A stretch of DNA of 64,000 nucleotides from positions 1,497,995 through 1,561,994 of the forward strand of contig OZ242002.1 in assembly GCA_965204665.1 (NCBI GenBank), read 5' to 3'. The notes under the pieces were generated by a model, which was not told the origin of the DNA, did not search any database, and saw only the letters and a program-made list of their open reading frames with translations. Of the stretch, positions 7,741 through 58,103 are shown one piece after another (within the stretch, counting starts at the first letter, position 1; each line of letters begins with the position of its first letter). The translations under genes and the position numbers were made by a program. Source of the stretch: Thermodesulfobacteriota bacterium. Its GTDB lineage: Bacteria > Desulfobacterota_D > UBA1144 > Nemesobacterales > Nemesobacteraceae.

Positions 7741-7815
7741 ATCTCGAAAAAAACGAACAGGGTTTACTGAATATAAGGCGGGGCCGTTTCTTTTACGAAA
7801 ACAACTTCACCTGAT

Positions 7816-9255
7816 TCAGTCTACGAACTCATACTTGTTCTGGCTGATTATATTCCCCGCTCGGTCGTTGTTTGCCGAGCCGCTTACTCGTATCTCAACA
7901 ACTTCAACTGCTCCTACGGAAATCTTGCCGGCAGCGTTGGTCAACGCTCTGGCCCCCGCCGCGAAGCCGCTGAACTGAATCTTGTCGTCCGCCAGTGTGA
8001 AGTCCGTAATGATGTCCACACCGCCGTCGGCTTTTCTGATGAGGAAAGTGTCGTTTCCGGCTCCTCCCGTAAGGTTGTCGGCGCCTTCTTCGCCTATGAG
8101 AACATCATTTCCCGCTCCGCCGTTGAGATTGTCTTCGCCTTTACCGCCTCTGAGGGTGTCGTTTCCTCCCCTACCTTCAAGAGTGTCGCCGGCGTTTCCT
8201 CCTGTGAGAGTATTCGCCTTGCTGTCCCCTTTGAAAGTAACAGATGAAATACGAGGAGCGGACCTGAAACTTGCCAGTACGGCTGAAAGGTTCTCGAAGT
8301 TGGACATATTGGAAGTATGAGTGCTGTCTGTAAGATCGAATTCGTTTCTGTGCCCGGTGCCGTCCACCGTGTAGGTGTTGCCTTGGATGAAATACTGACC
8401 TCCGTACACTATAAGAGTATCGTTGCCTTCACCGCCGTCTGCCGTACCTGCAGAGCCGTTAGCAAATTTAAGAGGAGAGGGTTCGATCGTATCATCTCCC
8501 TTGCCGCCTATCAGAGTATCCGCACCGTACCATCCGATCAGAACGTTGTCCCCGTCGTCTCCCGTGATGTGGTCGTCACCTCTGCTGCCCGCAACATCCT
8601 CGATACTCTCAAATGTATCATTCCCGAATGTGGCGTGCGTGAAGGTTTCTGAACTGAGGTCGAAAGTAACAGCCACCTTCCGCGTGTCACTCGATATATT
8701 CCCGCCGAAAGCAGCAGGGGGACCGGAAAAAAATAACATGTCCCGCCCGAGGCCGCCGTTGAACGTGTCGTCTCCCGGGTCCGTAATGAAGAAGAAATCA
8801 GTTCCCCCGCCGCCGTGGAGTTCATCATTTCCGGCGTCACCATAGATATCCTCGCTCCCGTCACCGCCGTAGAGAGTGTCGGTACCTGCTCCACCCCGAA
8901 TATAGTCATCCCCGCCTTCGCCGTAAACAACATCATCACCGTCTCCGGCTCTGATCTCGTTGGTGTCATCATTTCCGCAGATGACGTCGTCATCTGCGGT
9001 TCCCTGAATTAACCGTACGCCTCTCACCGCATTTATACCGTCACTTCTATCGCATCTGGGATCATCGGTCGGTGCCGGGTCCCCGCCCGGGTCACCTTTG
9101 TCCCCCTTATCTCCTTTCGGTCCCGCCACTCCAGGGTCTCCCTTATCTCCTTTTGCCCCGTCTTTCCCTGCCGGACCCATCTCTCCTTCACAGGCGGCAA
9201 GGAAAACCGCTCCGCCGAGCAGAAACAACATCACTAAGAAATTACGTAATCTCAT
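7816..9255 (-). CDS. Lipoprotein with collagen-like Gly-X-Y repeats and RTX (GGxGxD) calcium-binding beta-roll repeats, paralog 1
   Basis: Signal peptide plus lipobox (LAAC), then GPAGKDGAKGDKGDPG...-type triplets, then many GGAGNDTL / GGxGxD nonapeptide repeats. The C-terminal ~230 aa are about 90% identical to paralog 3. GGAGG RBS. Confidence 0.85.
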   Translation of the reverse strand: MRLRNFLVMLFLLGGAVFLAACEGEMGPAGKDGAKGDKGDPGVAGPKGDKGDKGDPGGDPAPTDDPRCDRSDGINAVRGVRLIQGTADDDVICGNDDTNEIRAGDGDDVVYGEGGDDYIRGGAGTDTLYGGDGSEDIYGDAGNDELHGGGGTDFFFITDPGDDTFNGGLGRDMLFFSGPPAAFGGNISSDTRKVAVTFDLSSETFTHATFGNDTFESIEDVAGSRGDDHITGDDGDNVLIGWYGADTLIGGKGDDTIEPSPLKFANGSAGTADGGEGNDTLIVYGGQYFIQGNTYTVDGTGHRNEFDLTDSTHTSNMSNFENLSAVLASFRSAPRISSVTFKGDSKANTLTGGNAGDTLEGRGGNDTLRGGKGEDNLNGGAGNDVLIGEEGADNLTGGAGNDTFLIRKADGGVDIITDFTLADDKIQFSGFAAGARALTNAAGKISVGAVEVVEIRVSGSANNDRAGNIISQNKYEFVD

Positions 9256-9357
9256 AATACAACCTCCTCATAAAAAGATGCTTCGTTTATTTACATAGAG
9301 TCGGAGTCAGTTATCCACTCCCGTTAAATTTGCTGTAACCCTACGCAACAGGCTTCA

Positions 9358-9384
9358 ATTTTACCCCCCCCCGATTTGAGTCAA
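9358..9384 (-). promoter_or_regulatory. Sigma70-like promoter with poly-G(9) spacer tract upstream of paralog 1
   Basis: On the minus strand: TTGACT - caaatc + G9 (15 nt spacer) - TAAAAT. It lies about 100 nt upstream of the ATG at 9255. Confidence 0.6.
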
Positions 9385-9736
9385 GCCCTTTTTTCGGCGT
9401 GGAGAATCACATACCTGTAATCCCGCCTGAGTGCTGAGTCGAGAGGGGCTGCAGGCGGACCGGACACCGGCGGGGTCCCCGCAAAGCACTGACGGCGGGG
9501 CTGCAGTTGCGCAGTCTGAAGGATGCTCCGGGCTGGGTGCTTGAGTTCCGCCGGCACTACCCGCTCACACAATACTGACGACAACACGCTTTATGGTGGC
9601 AGACACGCACTCATACATCCTCATTACATGAAGATTGAGCCCGAAAACGTTACGGCGCAACTGGCTCACAGATGATTTTCTTGACAATCCGTCCCGGAAT
9701 ATTTACAATGATACGAAATGGTTTTCATGGAGAGTT

Positions 9737-10027
9737 ATGAAAAAATCCGAATTTGAAGAGAAAATTTCCAGAGAGTTTGGTCTTAATTTCTCAGAATCCA
9801 GAAAAGTCGTTGATACCATAGTTAACTCCATGAGCGACACGCTTGGTGAAGGCGGCGGAATAGAGATAAGAGGTTTCGGGAGTCTCTATACCAAGTCCTA
9901 TATGCCTTATGAGGGAAGAAATCCTAGAACTGGAGATAAGATATCTGTCGCTGCAAAAATTCTGCCTATGTTCAAGGTGAGCAGATTACTTCTTTCCAGT
10001 CTTTCTGAAAAACCTGATGAAGAGTGA
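9737..10027 (+). CDS. HU/IHF-family DNA-binding protein
   Basis: GFGSLYTKSYMPYEGRNPRTGDKISVAAKILPMFK arm motif. The likely start is the ATG at 9737 (MKKSEFEEK...), not the ORF-track start at 9635. Confidence 0.8.
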   Translation: MKKSEFEEKISREFGLNFSESRKVVDTIVNSMSDTLGEGGGIEIRGFGSLYTKSYMPYEGRNPRTGDKISVAAKILPMFKVSRLLLSSLSEKPDEE

Positions 10028-14389: not shown

Positions 14390-14494
14390 TTCTGTTTTAT
14401 CTGCGGTTCATGAGAACTGAGTTCAGTTCAGGATTTTGACTCGGACCGCAGATATTTATAATATCCGAATAATTTTTCATAACAGTTTCCAACG

Positions 14495-15397
14495 ATGAAA
14501 TATGTAGAACAGGAACTGCTTTTCATACCCGTCGGCAAGAGCGGAGTGAATGCTCTTTACTACAGAGCGCTTAACAACGATTCTGATAAGAGGAAGACCG
14601 TAATCATTCACATCCACGGTTTTCTGGGCAATTTTCTTGACGGAAGTCAGAGATTTTTACCTCCAATTCTCGCAAAGGCCGGCTATTCGTCTATCTCAAT
14701 TAACACCAGAATGGCGAATTTCGGACTTTTTTTCGGCTTCGGAATAGTGGACGAGACGGTTCCCCAGATAGACGGTGTAGTGAAATATCTGAAGGAAATG
14801 GGGTATGAGAATATTATCGTTTCCGGCTACAGTCTCGGTGGAGGCGTGGTTTTCAGATATCTTTCCCTCAAAAGCCTCACGGACGGCTTGGAGAACGACA
14901 GTACCGTAAAGGGTGTCATAGCGCTTGCCACCCCGTATTCAATTCCCGATTCCGTAAAGAGAAGATGGAACAAGTGGGGAAGCATGCCGTCCTATGATGA
15001 AATGTATCAGGAGGCTGGGGAGATACTCGGCGATGACCCGCACAAATCAAAACAAGACAGGACCGTGCTTATTTTCAGGGCCAGAGGGGATTCCTACCGG
15101 CCGGAACACACGGAGATATACACTTACAAGACCTGGTGGTTTCTTGCGGGGCCGGAAGCGGAAGCGGTAAAAAGTTACAAGCAGATAAAAAACATAAAAC
15201 TGCCGATTCTGCTCATACAAGGCTGGGAGGACGAGTTTGTAAAGCCTGATGAAGCCTACAACCTCGCTCAAATAGCTATAGATAATGGAAACGACGATGT
15301 TTCCGCATATTACCTGAACACCGGACACACGCTCGACGGAAAAAAAGAGGAACTCGGCGACATTATAATAAGATGGCTTGACAGAAGATTCGTCTGA
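14495..15397 (+). CDS. Alpha/beta-fold hydrolase (GYSLGG nucleophile elbow), tandem paralog 1
   Basis: GxSxG motif. Shares blocks (NTRMA, TYKTWWF, GxxDxxV) with the next gene. Confidence 0.7.
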   Translation: MKYVEQELLFIPVGKSGVNALYYRALNNDSDKRKTVIIHIHGFLGNFLDGSQRFLPPILAKAGYSSISINTRMANFGLFFGFGIVDETVPQIDGVVKYLKEMGYENIIVSGYSLGGGVVFRYLSLKSLTDGLENDSTVKGVIALATPYSIPDSVKRRWNKWGSMPSYDEMYQEAGEILGDDPHKSKQDRTVLIFRARGDSYRPEHTEIYTYKTWWFLAGPEAEAVKSYKQIKNIKLPILLIQGWEDEFVKPDEAYNLAQIAIDNGNDDVSAYYLNTGHTLDGKKEELGDIIIRWLDRRFV

Positions 15398-39124: not shown

Positions 39125-40615
39125 TCACGCCGTCTGCGGACCGTAAACACTCCTCCCCGCGCAATACTCCCTGAATTTTTCCACACCCGGGATGTTCAAA
39201 ACCCGGGTCAAGTTGTAAGTCAGCGTCATCAGACTGAACTCTCCCCTGCACTTCTCAAGTCCCCGCATAAGAAACTGATGAAAACCGTTTCCGACCTTCA
39301 ATGTTCCGAACAGATGTTCAACAATTCTCCCCCGCTTCCTGATCTTCTCTTCTCCCTGTTCCATTCTCCGCCTGTGCCTCTCAAGCACTTCATGGTGTTC
39401 CCATCTTTGTATCAATCTGACTTGCTTCTCACCGATACAATGCCTGCGCATCGAACACGCCCTGCAGTCCGCACTTCTGCTTGTATATATAGTGTACCTC
39501 TTCCCATTTCTAACCCTTGGTTTTACGCGGGGGTCAGCCTCCTGCCCTGCGGACAATGATAACAATCCTCTCCGGCATCGTAAGTGAATTCGTCAAGACT
39601 GTAACGCCCCCGTTGTTTCATTCTCGAACTGTTGTCGGGAACAGGAACATAGACTGTAATGTCCTCATCCTCGCACCGCTTCAGTTCCATGCTCTCGTAA
39701 TAACCTCCGTCAGCCAGTCCTGTCAATTGTTCCGTATCAAGACTTTTCTTCGCTTCCGTAAGCATCCCGGCCAGTTGATGGTTGTCCGTGCCGTCCTGAA
39801 CCACATTCTCGGCAACTACAAGCTTGTGCTTCGAATCCACCGCTATCTGCGCGTTGTAACCCGCCACGCTCTGCCCCCGCTTCCTGAGCAGCCTCGCGTC
39901 TTTGTCCACCTTTGACACCTGAGTGTCACCACTTCTCTCCATGCGGTCCTTAGTCTCCCGATTCTCCTTCTGACGCTTCTTCAACTTCTCTATCTTCTCC
40001 CTCAACATCTTGTCGTTGCCCGCATCCTGTCTTCCCGCCTTCTCATCAGCGGCGTCAGCCTCCTCAAGTTCCTGCTGATACTCTTCTATCCTGCTCTCTA
40101 TATTCTCCAATTCCCTGTCTATATACCCTCGGGTCCGTATGCTTGCCCTGCTCGCGTCCGCAGAAAAGAAAGAACCGTCGACCGCCACCTCATCCCCGCC
40201 GAACAGGGATAACTCCCTGCACAGCAGAACAAAATCCCTGTTGACCTTCCTCAGTTGCGCCGCATGGTTCTTGCGGAAATCAGCAATGCTCTTGTAAGAC
40301 GGCCGCATCCCTTTCACCAGCCAAATCACTTCGAGATTCCTTCCGGTCTCCGCTTCCAGCTTGCGGCTGCTGCGTATACCATGCTGATATCCGTAAAGAT
40401 GCAAGCTTCAACATCGCCCACGGATTATAGGGAGGCTGCCCCGCTGTGGTGCCGGCCTCGGTATGCCTGAATCCCATGGAAGACAGATCAAGAGTGTCGA
40501 CGTAGGCATCAAGCGCCCGAACCTGGTGGTTCTCTCCGACATAGTCTTCCACTCTCTCGGGCAGAAGCAGTGTTTGTCCTCGGTCAAGTGCGGGTTTGTA
40601 TCGGCGTCGGTTCAT
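39125..40615 (-). pseudogene. IS1182-family (IS5 superfamily) transposase interrupted by two frameshifts
   Basis: Three consecutive ORFs in different frames together give about 497 aa: InsH-N-like (MLKL...YGYQHGIRSSRKLE), a coiled-coil middle, then a DDE/C-terminal YHCPQGRRLT...C..C..C segment. The shifts are near 40390 and 39540. Confidence 0.75.
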
Positions 40616-40756
40616 TGCGTATTACACCTCGGTATCAAGAATATGGAGTAATCGTACCTTAAGAAAGAGGATATATCAACACCTAACTGCATGTAATGCA
40701 AAGATAATTATGCTGTTGTATCAGCCGAGGGGGGGGGGATGAGGAAATCAGATTCT

Positions 40757-40829
40757 GTAAAAACATCTCGGTTCCGAGATATATGCTGAACAATGCAGAA
40801 TCTCAGAATACTTTCACAGTCTCAATTGG
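40757..40829 (+). repeat. Copy of Fic-gene 5' module (promoter + first 11 codons MQNLRILSQSQ), truncated
   Basis: Matches 56469-56538 (+) and 54630-54714 (-). The ORF stops after 17 codons here. Confidence 0.7.
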
Positions 40830-40940
40830 GGCAATCCTGCTAAAAAGTGACCTCAAATAAGCCCTGCCGTTTAAGTCGCGTTCACCGCGGAGGCGCTCAA
40901 AACGCTCTCCTCGGGCGTCTTTCCGTCTTTTCTCCCGAAC

Positions 40941-42257
40941 TCAGTCCACGAATTTATATAGGGTTGACGTACGGATTGAATTTCCTGTGGCGTCATCCTG
41001 CACATCAAATAAATTGTCTGATCCTATAGTGATCGTGCGACCCGATCCTGTCACCGTAGACCCGTTTGGAAAACCTTTGAACTGAAGTATATCGTTCTGA
41101 GAGGCGTTAAAGTCTTTAATATTATCCTTGTTGCTTCTGTGCGCGTACCTGATTTGAAAGGTGTCGGCACCGGCACCGCCCGTAAGAGTATCGGCACCGG
41201 CTTGTCCGTCGATCAGATCATTTCCGCCTCTTCCGTCAAGGGTATCGTTCCCGGCTAACCCGTCTAAATAATTTCCCAGGTTGTCTCCATTAAGAGTATC
41301 ATTTCCGTGTCCACCGAAAAGGTTCTCAATACCTGTAAATGTAATCGATCCTCCTCCATGACCACCGGCGTCAAAAGTCCCCGCGGCAAGATCAACGGTT
41401 CCAGCTGTATTATTTTGTGCGGAACGGATAAAACCATCCTTCACGGCCTGTATTCCCAGGCGGGGATCATCAGTTTGAATGCTCTCTAGGATTATAGCAT
41501 CACCAGTTTGCCGACCATTCCTGACAGCAGTTCCTATCGGGGGGCCGCCGTTAAAGGTGTCGTTGCCTTTACTGTTGACGAGATAAAATATATCTGCCCC
41601 GTCTCCACCGTTGAGCGTATCATTGCCTTCGCCGCCATGGAGAATGTCCCGCCCCGCATCGCCGTTGACCGTATCATCGCCGTCTACTCCCCGGATGAAA
41701 TCAATGCCGTCTCCGCCATGTAGGGTGTTAGCGCCGGCGTTGGCCCAGATGACATCCTCTCCATCTCCGCCATAGATGACGTCATCGGTAGTTTCCGTGC
41801 CTATGCTGCCTGCAACCTGAGCATCGACTTTGTCATCTCCGTCTTCACCGTATATCGTATCCGTGCCGGCACCACCGGCTATCGTGTCGTTTCCGGCACC
41901 ACCGTAAACAGTATCATCTCCGGCTCCGGCACTGATGTTGTTCACGTACTGATTTCCGCAGATGATGTCGTCATCTCCAGTCCCCGTGATATTATTGGAG
42001 ACACCGGGCAGAGCATTTATACCGTTGCTCACGTCGCATCTGGGGTCACCGAAGGATTTTCCCTGATCTCCCTGCGGGCCCGCCGCTCCCTGTGTTCCCG
42101 AGTCTCCTTTATCACCCTTATCTCCTTTCGCCCCGTCTTTACCTGCCGGACCTGTTTCCCCCTTCGGGCCTGCCGGCCCCATATCCCCTTCACAGGCAGC
42201 AAGGAAAACCGCTCCGCCGAGCAGAAACAACAACACTAAGAAATTACGTGACTTCAT
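40941..42257 (-). CDS. Lipoprotein with collagen-like Gly-X-Y repeats and RTX calcium-binding repeats, paralog 2
   Basis: MKSRNFLVLLFLLGGAVFLAACEGDMGPAGPKGETGPAGKDG... followed by GGAGxDT repeats. It is more diverged than paralogs 1 and 3 but has the same architecture and the same C-terminal YKFVD ending. Confidence 0.85.
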   Translation of the reverse strand: MKSRNFLVLLFLLGGAVFLAACEGDMGPAGPKGETGPAGKDGAKGDKGDKGDSGTQGAAGPQGDQGKSFGDPRCDVSNGINALPGVSNNITGTGDDDIICGNQYVNNISAGAGDDTVYGGAGNDTIAGGAGTDTIYGEDGDDKVDAQVAGSIGTETTDDVIYGGDGEDVIWANAGANTLHGGDGIDFIRGVDGDDTVNGDAGRDILHGGEGNDTLNGGDGADIFYLVNSKGNDTFNGGPPIGTAVRNGRQTGDAIILESIQTDDPRLGIQAVKDGFIRSAQNNTAGTVDLAAGTFDAGGHGGGSITFTGIENLFGGHGNDTLNGDNLGNYLDGLAGNDTLDGRGGNDLIDGQAGADTLTGGAGADTFQIRYAHRSNKDNIKDFNASQNDILQFKGFPNGSTVTGSGRTITIGSDNLFDVQDDATGNSIRTSTLYKFVD

Positions 42258-42285
42258 GACAAAACCTCCTTAAGCAGATGTTTTG

Positions 42286-42313
42286 ATTCTACCCCCCCCC
42301 CATATGAAGTCAA
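42286..42313 (-). promoter_or_regulatory. Sigma70-like promoter with poly-G(10) spacer tract upstream of paralog 2
   Basis: On the minus strand: TTGACT - tcatat + G10 (16 nt spacer) - TAGAAT. GGAGG RBS before the ATG at 42257. Confidence 0.6.
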
Positions 42314-54599: not shown

Positions 54600-54629
54600 A
54601 GATTCCTTTGAAACGGTCGTAATCAGATG

Positions 54630-54714
54630 AGACTGTGAAAATATTCTGAGGTTCTGCATTGTTCAGCGTAGACCTTGGAACCGAGATGTTTTTACAGAAT
54701 CTGATTTGTCCCCA
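54630..54714 (-). repeat. Inverted copy of Fic-gene 5' module (MQNLRIFSQS...), truncated
   Basis: Reverse complement matches 40745-40829 and 56469-56538. Confidence 0.7.
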
Positions 54715-54821: not shown

Positions 54822-54848
54822 TTGACTTCAGTCGGGGGGGGGTAAAAT
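54822..54848 (+). promoter_or_regulatory. Sigma70-like promoter with poly-G(9) spacer tract upstream of paralog 3
   Basis: TTGACT - tcagtc + G9 (15 nt spacer) - TAAAAT. AAGGAG RBS 8 nt before the ATG at 54907. Confidence 0.6.
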
Positions 54849-54906
54849 CAAAAACATGTTCATAGAGACTATGTACAAACAAAATATATTTTAAGGAGTT
54901 TATGTC

Positions 54907-56334
54907 ATGAGATTACGTAATTTCTTAGTGATGTTGTTTCTGCTCGGCGGCGCGGTTTTCTTTGCTGCCTGTGAAGGGGATATGGGTCCGGCGGGTCCGA
55001 AAGGAGATAAGGGCGACCCGGGAACACCGGGACCGGCAGGACCTCCAGGAGCACAAGGACCGGCGGGACCCTCGGGCGATGTCTCCGGTGATCCCAGATG
55101 CGATGTAGGTAACGGCATAGATTCGACTAAAGGCCAACGGGTGATCCAGGGAACCGATGGTGACGATGTCATCTGCGGGAATAATACCGTCAACGACATT
55201 AAAGCCGGTGATGGTGACGACATTGTCTACGGTGCAGGAGCCGACGATGATATATACGGTGAGAAAGGTGACGACACTCTCTACGGAGAAAACGGACAGG
55301 ACTTTATTCGGGGTGGAGAAGGTAACGATGTTCTCTACGGTAACGGTGAGAACGACGATGTCTATGGCGGCCCCGGAAATGATAAACTCTACGGCGGAGA
55401 AAGAACTGATTTCTTCTTCATCGCGGACCCGGGAGACGATACGTTCGACGGCGGTCCCGGTCCGGATATGTTAATTTTTTCCGGTCCTACTCCTAATAAC
55501 GGCGGTAATATACCGGAAACCACGCGGAATGTGGCTCTTACTTTCGACCTCCGTTCAAAAACCCACACGCACGCCACGTTCGGGACTGATGCATTTGAGA
55601 GTATCGAGGATATTGCGGGCAGTAGAGGTAACGATCATATTACAGGAGACGACGGGGACAATGTTTTACTGGGATGGTACGGTACGGACACTCTGATAGG
55701 CGGCAAGGGAGATGATACGATCGAACCCTCTCCTCTTAAATTTAATAACGGCTTTGCAGGTACAGCAGACGGCGGTGAAGGCAACGATACTCTTGTAGTG
55801 TACGGAGGTATGTATGTAATCCAGGGCAACACCTACACGGTGGACGGCACCGGGCACAGAAACGAATTCGATCTTGAAGACAGCAGTCATACTTCCACTA
55901 TGTCCAACTTCGAGAACCTTTCAGCCGTACTGAGAAGTTTCAGAACTCCTCGTAGTTCATCTGTTACTTTCAAAGGGGACTCCAAGGCTAATATTCTCAC
56001 GGGCGGAAACGCCGCAGACACTCTTGAAGGTAGAGGAGGGAACGATACTCTGATAGGCGGCAAAGGCGCCGACAACCTTACCGGCGGAGCCGGAAACGAC
56101 ACTTTCCTCATCGGAAAAGCCGACGGCGGTGTGGATATCATTAAGGATTTCACATTGGCGGACGACAAGATTCAGTTCAGCGGCTTCGCAGCGGGGGCCA
56201 GAGCGTTGACCAACGCTGCCGGCAAGATTTCCGTAGGAGGAGTTGAAGTTGTTGAGATACAGGTAAGCAACTCGGCAAACAACGAACTAGCGGGGAATAT
56301 CATCAGCCGGAACAAGTATGAGTTCGTAGACTGA
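54907..56334 (+). CDS. Lipoprotein with collagen-like Gly-X-Y repeats and RTX calcium-binding repeats, paralog 3
   Basis: MRLRNFLVMLFLLGGAVFFAACEGDMGPAGPKGDKGDPGTPGPAGPPGAQGPAGPSG..., then GGxGxD repeats. Its C-terminal region is about 90% identical to paralog 1. Confidence 0.85.
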   Translation: MRLRNFLVMLFLLGGAVFFAACEGDMGPAGPKGDKGDPGTPGPAGPPGAQGPAGPSGDVSGDPRCDVGNGIDSTKGQRVIQGTDGDDVICGNNTVNDIKAGDGDDIVYGAGADDDIYGEKGDDTLYGENGQDFIRGGEGNDVLYGNGENDDVYGGPGNDKLYGGERTDFFFIADPGDDTFDGGPGPDMLIFSGPTPNNGGNIPETTRNVALTFDLRSKTHTHATFGTDAFESIEDIAGSRGNDHITGDDGDNVLLGWYGTDTLIGGKGDDTIEPSPLKFNNGFAGTADGGEGNDTLVVYGGMYVIQGNTYTVDGTGHRNEFDLEDSSHTSTMSNFENLSAVLRSFRTPRSSSVTFKGDSKANILTGGNAADTLEGRGGNDTLIGGKGADNLTGGAGNDTFLIGKADGGVDIIKDFTLADDKIQFSGFAAGARALTNAAGKISVGGVEVVEIQVSNSANNELAGNIISRNKYEFVD

Positions 56335-56388
56335 ATCAGGTGAAGTTGTTTTCATAAAAGAAGCAGCCTCGCCCCATATTCGGCAAGA

Positions 56389-56424: not shown

Positions 56425-56468
56425 TGCAGTAAAGGGAAAACCTTGATTCAGACAGGGCGAAAGAGACC

Positions 56469-56538
56469 GTAAAAACATCTCGTTTCTGAGATCTATGCTG
56501 AACAATGCAGAACCTCAGAATACTTTCACAGTCTCAAA
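56469..56538 (+). repeat. Fic-gene 5' module (promoter + start of ORF), full copy leading into the Fic pseudogene
   Basis: gtaaaaacatctcgtttctgagatctATGctgaacaATGcagaacctcagaatactttcacagtctca. Confidence 0.7.
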
Positions 56539-57508
56539 TCGGGAAAACACAAACTGCGGGACAATCCGCCGGCACTTATGCCAGGCGTATACTCAATCGG
56601 TTGCTGATTGATCTTGCGTGGAATTCCAGTCGTCTGGAAGGGAATACATACTCATTGATCGACACTGGGAGACTGATAGAATTCGGTGAAGAAGCGGCGG
56701 GAAGGAACCATACTGAAACGCAGATGATCCTTAACCACAAGGATGCAATTGAATTTCTGGTCGACTACGCCGACAAAATCGACTTCAACAGACACTCGAT
56801 ATGTAATCTGCATGCATTGCTGTCAAATAACCTGCTGGCGAATCGTGCGGCATCCGGACGCTTGCGTAGTATCGCCGTCGGCATCGGAGAGTCGGCTCTC
56901 CACCACTTGAGATACTGCAACTGATTGAAGAATGCTTTGCGCAGATACTGTCCAAAGCGGCCGGGATCGGGGACCCGTTCGAGCAGGCATTTTCCGTATT
57001 GGTTCACATACCCTATCTGCAGCCTTTCGAAGATGTGAACAAGCGTGTTTCGTGCCTAGCGGCCAACATTCCTCTGATTCGCAATAATTTCGTGCCGTTG
57101 TCTTTCACGGATGTTCCGAAGGATGCTTATACAGAAGCCGCCCTCGGGGTATATGAACTGAATGATGTCGCGTTGCTCAAAGATGTCTTCTTGCGGGCCT
57201 ATGAACGGTCAGCGGCAAAACATATCTCTGTCCAGCGGGCACTGGGAGAACCGGATGTCTTTCGTCTCAAATATCGGACCGAATTGCGTGAGATAATAGC
57301 CGAGTTGATTCGAACTGGAACCGGGCGTGCGCAAGTCACAGCTGAAATCGTACAGTGGGCGGAGAACAGAATCAGGCTTGATGACCGCGATGCGTTCGTG
57401 GAAGTCGTCGAGGAGGAACTCATAGAACTGCATGAAGGAAATTTTGCACGCTACAAGGTGCTGTTATCCGAATATGTTGCATGGAAGGATGTATGGACCG
57501 CGAAGTAA
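56505..57508 (+). pseudogene. Fic/DOC-family protein with degenerate active-site motif and a frameshift
   Basis: N-terminal LIDLAWNSSRLEGNTYSL (Fic_N-like) in frame 0 stops at 56924. Frame 2 is open from 56870 and carries ...DPFEQAFSVLVHIPYLQPFEDVNKR, i.e. HPFx(D/E)GNGR degraded to QPFEDVNKR. Confidence 0.55.
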
Positions 57509-58103
57509 GAAAATCGTTAGAGGTGTGTTTGACGATTGCAAGTAGGTTTCAGGCAATAAACCGAGAAGGTTTAGATTTACCGGAAGTGAAGTAGTGGGGG
57601 GGGGCCGATGCTTGTGTTGAAAAACTCATACCCGCTGAGTATTATTTGAAGAAAGGGAAGGCAATCCCGCAGCATAAGGATGGAGTAAAGGCGATGACGA
57701 TTTGTAAGTACGACATGGAAAGATTACCGCGGTCATCGTGATGCCGATGTGTCGAGTCTTCCTTTCATTTCAAAATGCCCTTTGTTTCAAGACTCGGACT
57801 TTCTGACATGACTTTTCAGGTCAACTATTAGACGGGTCGCGGAAGTCGTTGTTTTTCCAACATTTATTTGCGCTGAACTGTAGGTGCGGGTGGACCGGCA
57901 TATGACAGTCGCTGATGCCCGCTACAGACTTAAGTCCATCCACCCGATAATCATTGCATGATGAAACACCGGGTGCGGTTTCGTCATGAAAATGGTTCAT
58001 CAATTTAGGTTGTATCGGGTCGGAAAGTCTGATATCGGCCTGAGCATTTTTTCAGGAATCGGCTACTATAATCATTTATGACTGAGCGCGGAGGTTTTTA
58101 CGT

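Follow-up and report, generated by a model that had tools for sequence, protein, structure and literature searches.

Homopolymer runs in promoters are a known means by which bacterial surface proteins are switched up and down at random, and large families of paralogous surface lipoproteins are the kind of gene usually found under such switches. To our knowledge, almost everything that has been worked out about phase-variable promoters comes from pathogens such as Neisseria, Haemophilus, Treponema and Mycoplasma. The porA gene of Neisseria meningitidis has a G tract in the spacer between its -35 and -10 boxes; 11 G's, which give a 17-nt spacer, support high expression, 10 G's give about 2-fold less, and with 9 G's surface expression is 13-fold lower (PMC3639595). 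Treponema pallidum tp0126 also has a poly-G tract between -35 and -10, with an optimum at 17-nt spacing, and the poly-G tracts upstream of the T. pallidum tpr genes vary in length within isolates (PMC7864442). In Mycoplasma hyorhinis there is a poly-A tract in the promoter of every vlp gene, and the genes switch independently (PMC10502178); each is ON or OFF on its own account, and the surface coats are combinatorial (PMC10502178; PMC4198240).

The module described here lies in a 64,000-nucleotide stretch of DNA (the window, whose positions are counted from its first letter), upstream of a lipoprotein gene that we call paralog 1. On the minus strand, positions 9358-9384 read TTGACTCAAATCGGGGGGGGGTAAAAT, that is, two promoter hexamers whose spacer ends in a run of G's (table 1). 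What it shares with porA is a G tract in the range of 9–11 within the sigma-70 spacer of a (here presumed) surface-protein gene; porA, however, is a single porin gene of a pathogen, whereas the genes considered here are at least 26 lipoprotein paralogs of an uncultured member of Candidatus Dadabacteria. With Treponema tp0126 and the tpr genes it has in common a poly-G tract of at least 8 in the promoters of paralogous putative surface proteins. It differs from tprE, tprG, tprJ and tprL, in which the tract lies immediately 5′ of the transcription start and short tracts allow expression, and the Treponema products are β-barrel outer-membrane proteins, whereas those encoded here are lipoproteins with collagen and RTX repeats. 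The Vlp system is similar in that surface lipoprotein genes each have a promoter homopolymer tract of their own, but its tracts are poly-A and its seven genes are clustered in a wall-less Mollicute; here the tracts are poly-G, the genes (at least 26) are scattered, and the window encodes TamB, which indicates that the organism is diderm and has an outer membrane.

Table 1. Features of the paralog loci and their surroundings (positions in the window unless a locus is named)
Feature	Position	Strand	Remarks
Paralog 1 gene	7816..9255	-	479 aa; signal peptide, Gly-X-Y triplets, RTX β-roll
Predicted 5′ leader of paralog 1	9256..9357	-	contains AGGAGG ribosome-binding site at 9263-9268
-10 hexamer TAAAAT	9358..9363	-	TA[A/G]A[A/C]T kept in 13/13 family promoters
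G9 homopolymer	9364..9372	-	stretch of the spacer proposed to slip; whole spacer 15 nt
Non-G spacer caaatc	9373..9378	-	differs among paralogs: tcagtc, tcatat, catgta, taccac
-35 hexamer TTGACT	9379..9384	-	TTGAC[T/A] in 13/13 family promoters of two species
A6 tract	9389..9394	-	position of a proximal UP element, four bases upstream of -35
HU-like gene promoter	9681-9709	+	TTGACA-17-TACAAT
HU-like gene	9737-10027	+	divergent neighbour of paralog 1
IS-type DDE transposase gene	39523-40404	-	G10 run between it and the 3′ end of paralog 3
Repeat copy	40745-40834	+	
Paralog 3 gene	40941..42257	-	438 aa
Paralog 3 module	42286..42313	-	TTGACT-tcatat-G10-TAGAAT; spacer 16 nt
Repeat copy	54628-54707	-	
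Paralog 2 module	54822..54848	+	TTGACT-tcagtc-G9-TAAAAT; spacer 15 nt
Paralog 2 gene (P0002)	54907..56334	+	475 aa; about 72% identical to paralog 1
Repeat copy	56462-56546	+	
Repeat copy in locus L084	1986-2056		

The initial annotation had reported TTGACT caaatc GGGGGGGGG TAAAAT on the minus strand at 9384-9358, about 100 nt 5′ of the ATG at 9255. The reading is exact, letter for letter, and 102 nt lie between the -10 box (9358) and the ATG (9255-9253). Contingency loci of this type have a homopolymer of about 8 nt or more that is able to slip, a length that the G9 run reaches, and here the tract is located inside the core promoter, between -35 and -10, in the arrangement TTGACT-N6-G9-TAAAAT. 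When up to three mismatches are allowed, this arrangement is present in two places in the window and in none of 100 dinucleotide-preserving shuffles of it, and G8 windows are matched 12 times where 1.98 matches are expected. The usual distance to a -10 box would place the transcription start near 9350-9352. The A6 tract upstream is a putative UP element; an A-rich stretch 5′ of -35 is also present in another family promoter of this species, that of locus L090, and is weaker in the other two copies in the window. Several other roles for the tract were considered and set aside. A G-quadruplex cannot arise from one G9 run, no alternative sigma factor motifs are present, and the tract does not lie in a coding frame: a 68-aa open reading frame (9381-9587) overlaps only the -35 box and is itself unsupported. 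A search of Rfam gave no match in 9200-9800, only three tRNAs in the whole window and, near 40750, a sub-threshold snoRNA match that is meaningless; this outcome lends no support to a riboswitch or a small RNA of known type.

The module sits in the 481-nt divergent intergenic region between paralog 1 and the HU-like gene, and it is the sole strong hexamer pair in that region that faces paralog 1; a generic scan accepting 16–18 nt spacers found no other promoter in this direction. The complementary poly-C tract is unlikely to act on the HU-like gene, since a separate promoter, about 300 nt away, serves that gene and since the orientation of the module is always that of the paralog. Between the module and the HU-like gene is a GC-rich island (9400-9600; 66–69% GC against 48% for the window), which has stable folds on both strands, as expected of GC-rich sequence, and for which there was no Rfam match and no repeat in any fetched locus.

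The initial annotation also held that the module, a copy belonging to a paralogous gene, is the same as that at 54822-54848. The plus-strand reading there, TTGACTTCAGTCGGGGGGGGGTAAAAT, is indeed of the same design and differs in the non-G spacer bases; it is followed after 58 nt by an ATG at 54907, and that gene, paralog 2, is a paralog of the first. A third module, in addition to these two, surfaced in a search for G8 runs; it is 28 nt from the ATG of paralog 3, and it is the only one of the three that the generic 16–18 nt promoter scan accepts. The three paralogs are dispersed among housekeeping genes (such as those for MetH, TamB, Der, a DtxR-like regulator and NAD-dependent DNA ligase) and thus are not on an island. 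Elsewhere in the window, a G9 run at 57596-57604 (+), between an unannotated 169-aa open reading frame and a Peptidase_M23 gene, ends 12 nt upstream of a promoter-like TTGAAA-17-TATTAT (57617-57645), and it may represent a second type of tract-adjacent promoter.

The paralogs are also adjoined by a repeat of 72–85 nt with imperfect terminal inverted repeats (GAGNCTGTRAAA ... TTTCACAGNCTC). Three copies of this repeat lie about 110–130 nt past a stop codon, and one lies about 115 nt 5′ of the paralog 2 promoter. The repeat resembles a miniature mobile element, or else a regulatory or terminator sequence common to these loci; no match to it was found in Rfam, and it shows no covariation. A G10 run (40729-40738, +) stands directly 5′ of the repeat copy near paralog 3 and is not flanked by promoter hexamers; the copy at 54628-54707 has a degenerate GGGGAAATGGGG where the other has G10.

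Promoters could be read for 13 family members, five from the window species (the three in the window and those of loci L084 and L090) and eight from the chromosome of a sister species (OZ220467.1). All 13 consist of TTGAC[T/A], 5–7 non-G bases, a G run and TA[A/G]A[A/C]T. In the window species, identity upstream of the -35 box is gone within about 10 bases, no two promoters share their non-G spacer bases and the leaders range from 28 to 102 nt in length; the hexamers are invariant all the same. Hexamers that are kept while the surrounding sequence diverges are the footprint of a sigma-70-type promoter, and the finding of hexamers and G tract before every one of the family genes examined supports the original description of the site as a poly-G promoter. 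The G runs are 9, 9, 10, 9 and 9 long in the window species (spacers of 15, 15, 16, 15 and 15 nt) and 12–14 long on the sister chromosome (spacers of 19 nt in six of the eight and of 18 nt in two). Differences in length are confined to the tract, and their presence both among paralogs and between species makes the G run the length-variable part of the promoter. The canonical 17-nt spacer is found in none of the 13, and the two species flank this optimum (15–16 versus 18–19 nt). Four of the five window-species promoters have exactly G9 despite their diverged flanks, which is tighter than free drift predicts, and the length could be constrained for another reason.

Four comparisons of orthologous promoters were made with contigs of the sister species that were co-assembled from one metagenome. 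L085, L086 and L087 each have a G12 tract, as do L088 and L089, which have four SNPs nearby. On the other hand, L091 has G14 and L092 has G18 as their only difference over about 300 nt (the assemblies are apparently long-read, for which homopolymer lengths are subject to some error, and this comparison is the one most affected), and L093 has G13 versus G12 in L094, where the sequence 5′ of the tract has been replaced. The orthologous tract length in the sister species therefore differs in two of four comparisons and is the same in the other two, and there appears to be instability at a fixed locus in that species, at some loci only.

The proteins encoded by the three paralogs in the window have a common plan. 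Paralog 1 begins with MRLRNFLVMLFLLGGAVFLAAC, a lipoprotein signal peptide with the lipobox L-A-A-C, and in all three the signal peptide is nearly identical and has this lipobox at its end; after it come, in order, about 10 Gly-X-Y triplets (residues 26-57 in paralog 1), a conserved DPRCD-x-S/G-D/N-G motif and the RTX nonapeptide repeats. The Pfam family HemolysinCabind (PF00353) is matched strongly in all three (E=5.6e-33 for paralog 1 and 1.3e-38 for paralog 3), and an AlphaFold model built with 25 family members as input is a β-roll (mean pLDDT 81.5), whose best matches in the PDB are the RTX blocks of CyaA, the adenylate cyclase toxin, and the C-terminal domain of serralysin. Profile and model thus agree that the Gly/Asp-rich nonapeptide repeats are of the kind that form a calcium-binding β-roll. 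The Gly-X-Y triplets resemble those of bacterial collagen-like proteins, but the run in paralog 1 is short and scores 22.5 bits against Pfam Collagen, and only paralog 3 (30.5 bits) is above the cut-off of 27.2; the collagen-like part is of low confidence in the AlphaFold monomer model. Classical RTX proteins lack a signal peptide at the N-terminus and exit the cell via type I secretion, for which they use a C-terminal signal and an ABC/MFP/OMP system. The paralogs resemble them in having HemolysinCabind repeats that fold as a β-roll and differ from them in carrying a lipoprotein signal peptide, so they are not classical type I-secreted RTX proteins; their immediate neighbours are housekeeping or transposase genes and not type I secretion genes. 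The signal peptide and L-A-A-C lipobox, in a diderm host, point to a surface or secreted product such as contingency loci typically control, and we infer that the paralog products are exposed on the surface.

At the DNA level the signal-peptide codons of the three genes are nearly identical (9149-9273, 42151-42273 and 54889-55051), and the similarity between paralogs 1 and 2 at their other end continues for 52 nt after the stop codon (7764-8154 versus 55996-56386), whereas the genes have diverged further in their central regions (71–85%). This pattern suggests that concerted evolution or gene conversion may have acted at the ends of the paralog genes.

The window's own chromosome of 1.98 Mb (1,980,752 bp), which encodes a protein 100% identical to paralog 1, has at least 26 members of the family among the best 120 homologues, and the 2.39 Mb (2,386,527 bp) sister chromosome has about 30, namely about 26 plus four cluster members; the family takes up roughly 2% of the 2 Mb genome. 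Both genomes belong to Candidatus Dadabacteria, which the NCBI taxonomy ranks as a class within the Thermodesulfobacteriota. The Der GTPases of the window and sister genomes are 88% identical, and their next relatives, at 72–74%, are named Candidatus Dadabacteria. The contig names and isolate identifiers match a metaMDBG/PacBio HiFi pipeline that has been applied to sponge metagenomes, including those with Dadabacteria (PMC12648040), and a sponge origin is plausible. JGI metagenomes, scanned with a DNA pattern specific to the family and with a protein profile of the N-terminus, gave no family member, and exact-protein look-ups with paralog 1, the HU-like protein, P0001 and P0121 returned no record and so gave no second copy of the locus for comparison. 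Literature searches found nothing on collagen, RTX or phase-variable lipoproteins in this lineage, nor on the accessions.

The promoter design itself is not limited to this lineage. A scan of 185,579 species genomes with TTGACT-N6-G8(N0-6)TARAAT found at least 83 loci in very diverse bacteria. Among the matches listed, the G run usually extends to the -10 box, and the downstream open reading frames mostly have signal-peptide, lipobox or type IV pilin-like N-termini; these observations would fit the view that G-tract spacers before surface-protein genes are widespread. The hosts among the matches listed are dozens of unrelated metagenome-assembled genomes, of Clostridia, Tenericutes, Saccharibacteria, Planctomycetota, Bdellovibrionales, Treponema and others, and TTGACT-N6-G8+-TA[A/G]AAT is often present there in multiple copies per genome with conserved flanks.

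We think it likely that the module is the sigma-70 promoter of a lipoprotein gene and that a G tract prone to slippage determines how strong this promoter is. RNA polymerase would recognize the TTGACT (-35) and TAAAAT (-10) hexamers of the paralog 1 promoter, and slipped-strand mispairing in replication would add or remove G's and so alter the spacer and hence promoter strength. The spacer as assembled (N6 plus G9) is 15 nt, and N6 plus G11 would make it 17 nt; by analogy with porA, G9 would correspond to low expression, G10 (as in paralog 3) to intermediate expression and G11 to the full ON state. Expression switching by such length changes, with slippage as their cause, is inferred; differences among paralogs and between species support it, as does the G14/G18 difference at one orthologous locus of the sister species, and for the dependence of transcription on tract length there is the analogy with porA and tp0126. 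Since each of the at least 26 paralogs has its own tract, the copies could switch independently, and cells would display differing mixes of collagen-like RTX lipoproteins on their surface. A consensus assembly would report the majority state, with most copies off-optimum and each ON in few cells. A 15-nt spacer is perhaps not fully OFF, because a near-consensus TTGACT-15-TATAAT, with no G tract, is present at 14436-14462 (+), 33 nt 5′ of a housekeeping open reading frame at 14495-15397; this hints that ordinary promoters here use 15-nt spacers, and such a spacer may retain some activity in this organism.

Within each genome the lengths fall in a narrow range that is specific to the species (G9 in four of five promoters here, a 19-nt spacer in six of eight in the sister). 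This, with the two orthologous comparisons that show no change and the absence of any 17-nt spacer, would be in keeping with a fixed functional part of the promoter, either a regulator site or a structural element, that has a species-preferred length. We nevertheless regard a fixed element as unlikely. Lengths still vary among paralogs within one genome (9 and 10 in one; 12, 13 and 14 in the other), four extra G's are the sole change in 300 nt at one orthologous locus, and runs of 9 or more identical bases have an intrinsic instability wherever they have been studied (PMC7864442, PMC3639595); in addition, neither a regulator nor a second conserved motif was found. The replaced sequence in L094 raises a different idea, that the tract is a recombination or rearrangement junction at which promoters and coding cassettes are swapped among paralogs. 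There (about 1180-1400, by comparison with L093) unrelated DNA has taken the place of everything 5′ of the tract, the -35 box among it, the breakpoint is at the tract, and a DDE transposase gene lies upstream; the paralogs' nearly identical signal-peptide codons and 3′ ends, with differing middles, could have the same origin. This is one case only, however, and a junction role by itself leaves the conserved -35 and -10 boxes on either side of the tract unexplained. It would be compatible with a length-dependent promoter without replacing it, and as the principal role of the tract we consider it very improbable.

Chance and error deserve still less weight. Long-read homopolymer lengths can be off by one or more, and some of the comparison contigs are of low coverage, to judge from the "2x" and "3x" in their names, but a wrong run length would not abolish the module. 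Its presence before all 13 paralogs in two independently assembled genomes, and its absence from the 100 shuffles, effectively refute any doubt that it exists, and it is hardly credible that the module is a fortuitous match with no functional unit behind it or an artefact of assembly; the exact run lengths are provisional.

A length-dependent sigma-70 promoter of this kind is a mechanism of a known sort; what is new is the gene family, how large it is, and the lineage. The design, known from the pathogens named above, is here extended to uncultured Candidatus Dadabacteria of the Thermodesulfobacteriota and linked with a family, not described before, of at least 26 genes for collagen-like RTX lipoproteins, and in the annotation and comparison of such genomes the homopolymer lengths at these loci should not be taken as fixed. 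More speculatively, it is possible, though we would not call it probable, that about 30 independent switches per genome make up a Vlp-like combinatorial lottery of surface coats in these uncultured, small-genome and probably sponge-associated Candidatus Dadabacteria. If so, collagen-mimicking, calcium-binding lipoproteins might act in contact with the host matrix or in evading host cells or phages, and the 15- and 19-nt consensus spacers, both two steps off the optimum, might reflect the small number of cells in which each copy is ON. Should switching prove true, environmental or symbiotic bacteria would also be using stochastic surface variation as a strategy, and this family would be a candidate for interaction with hosts or phages.
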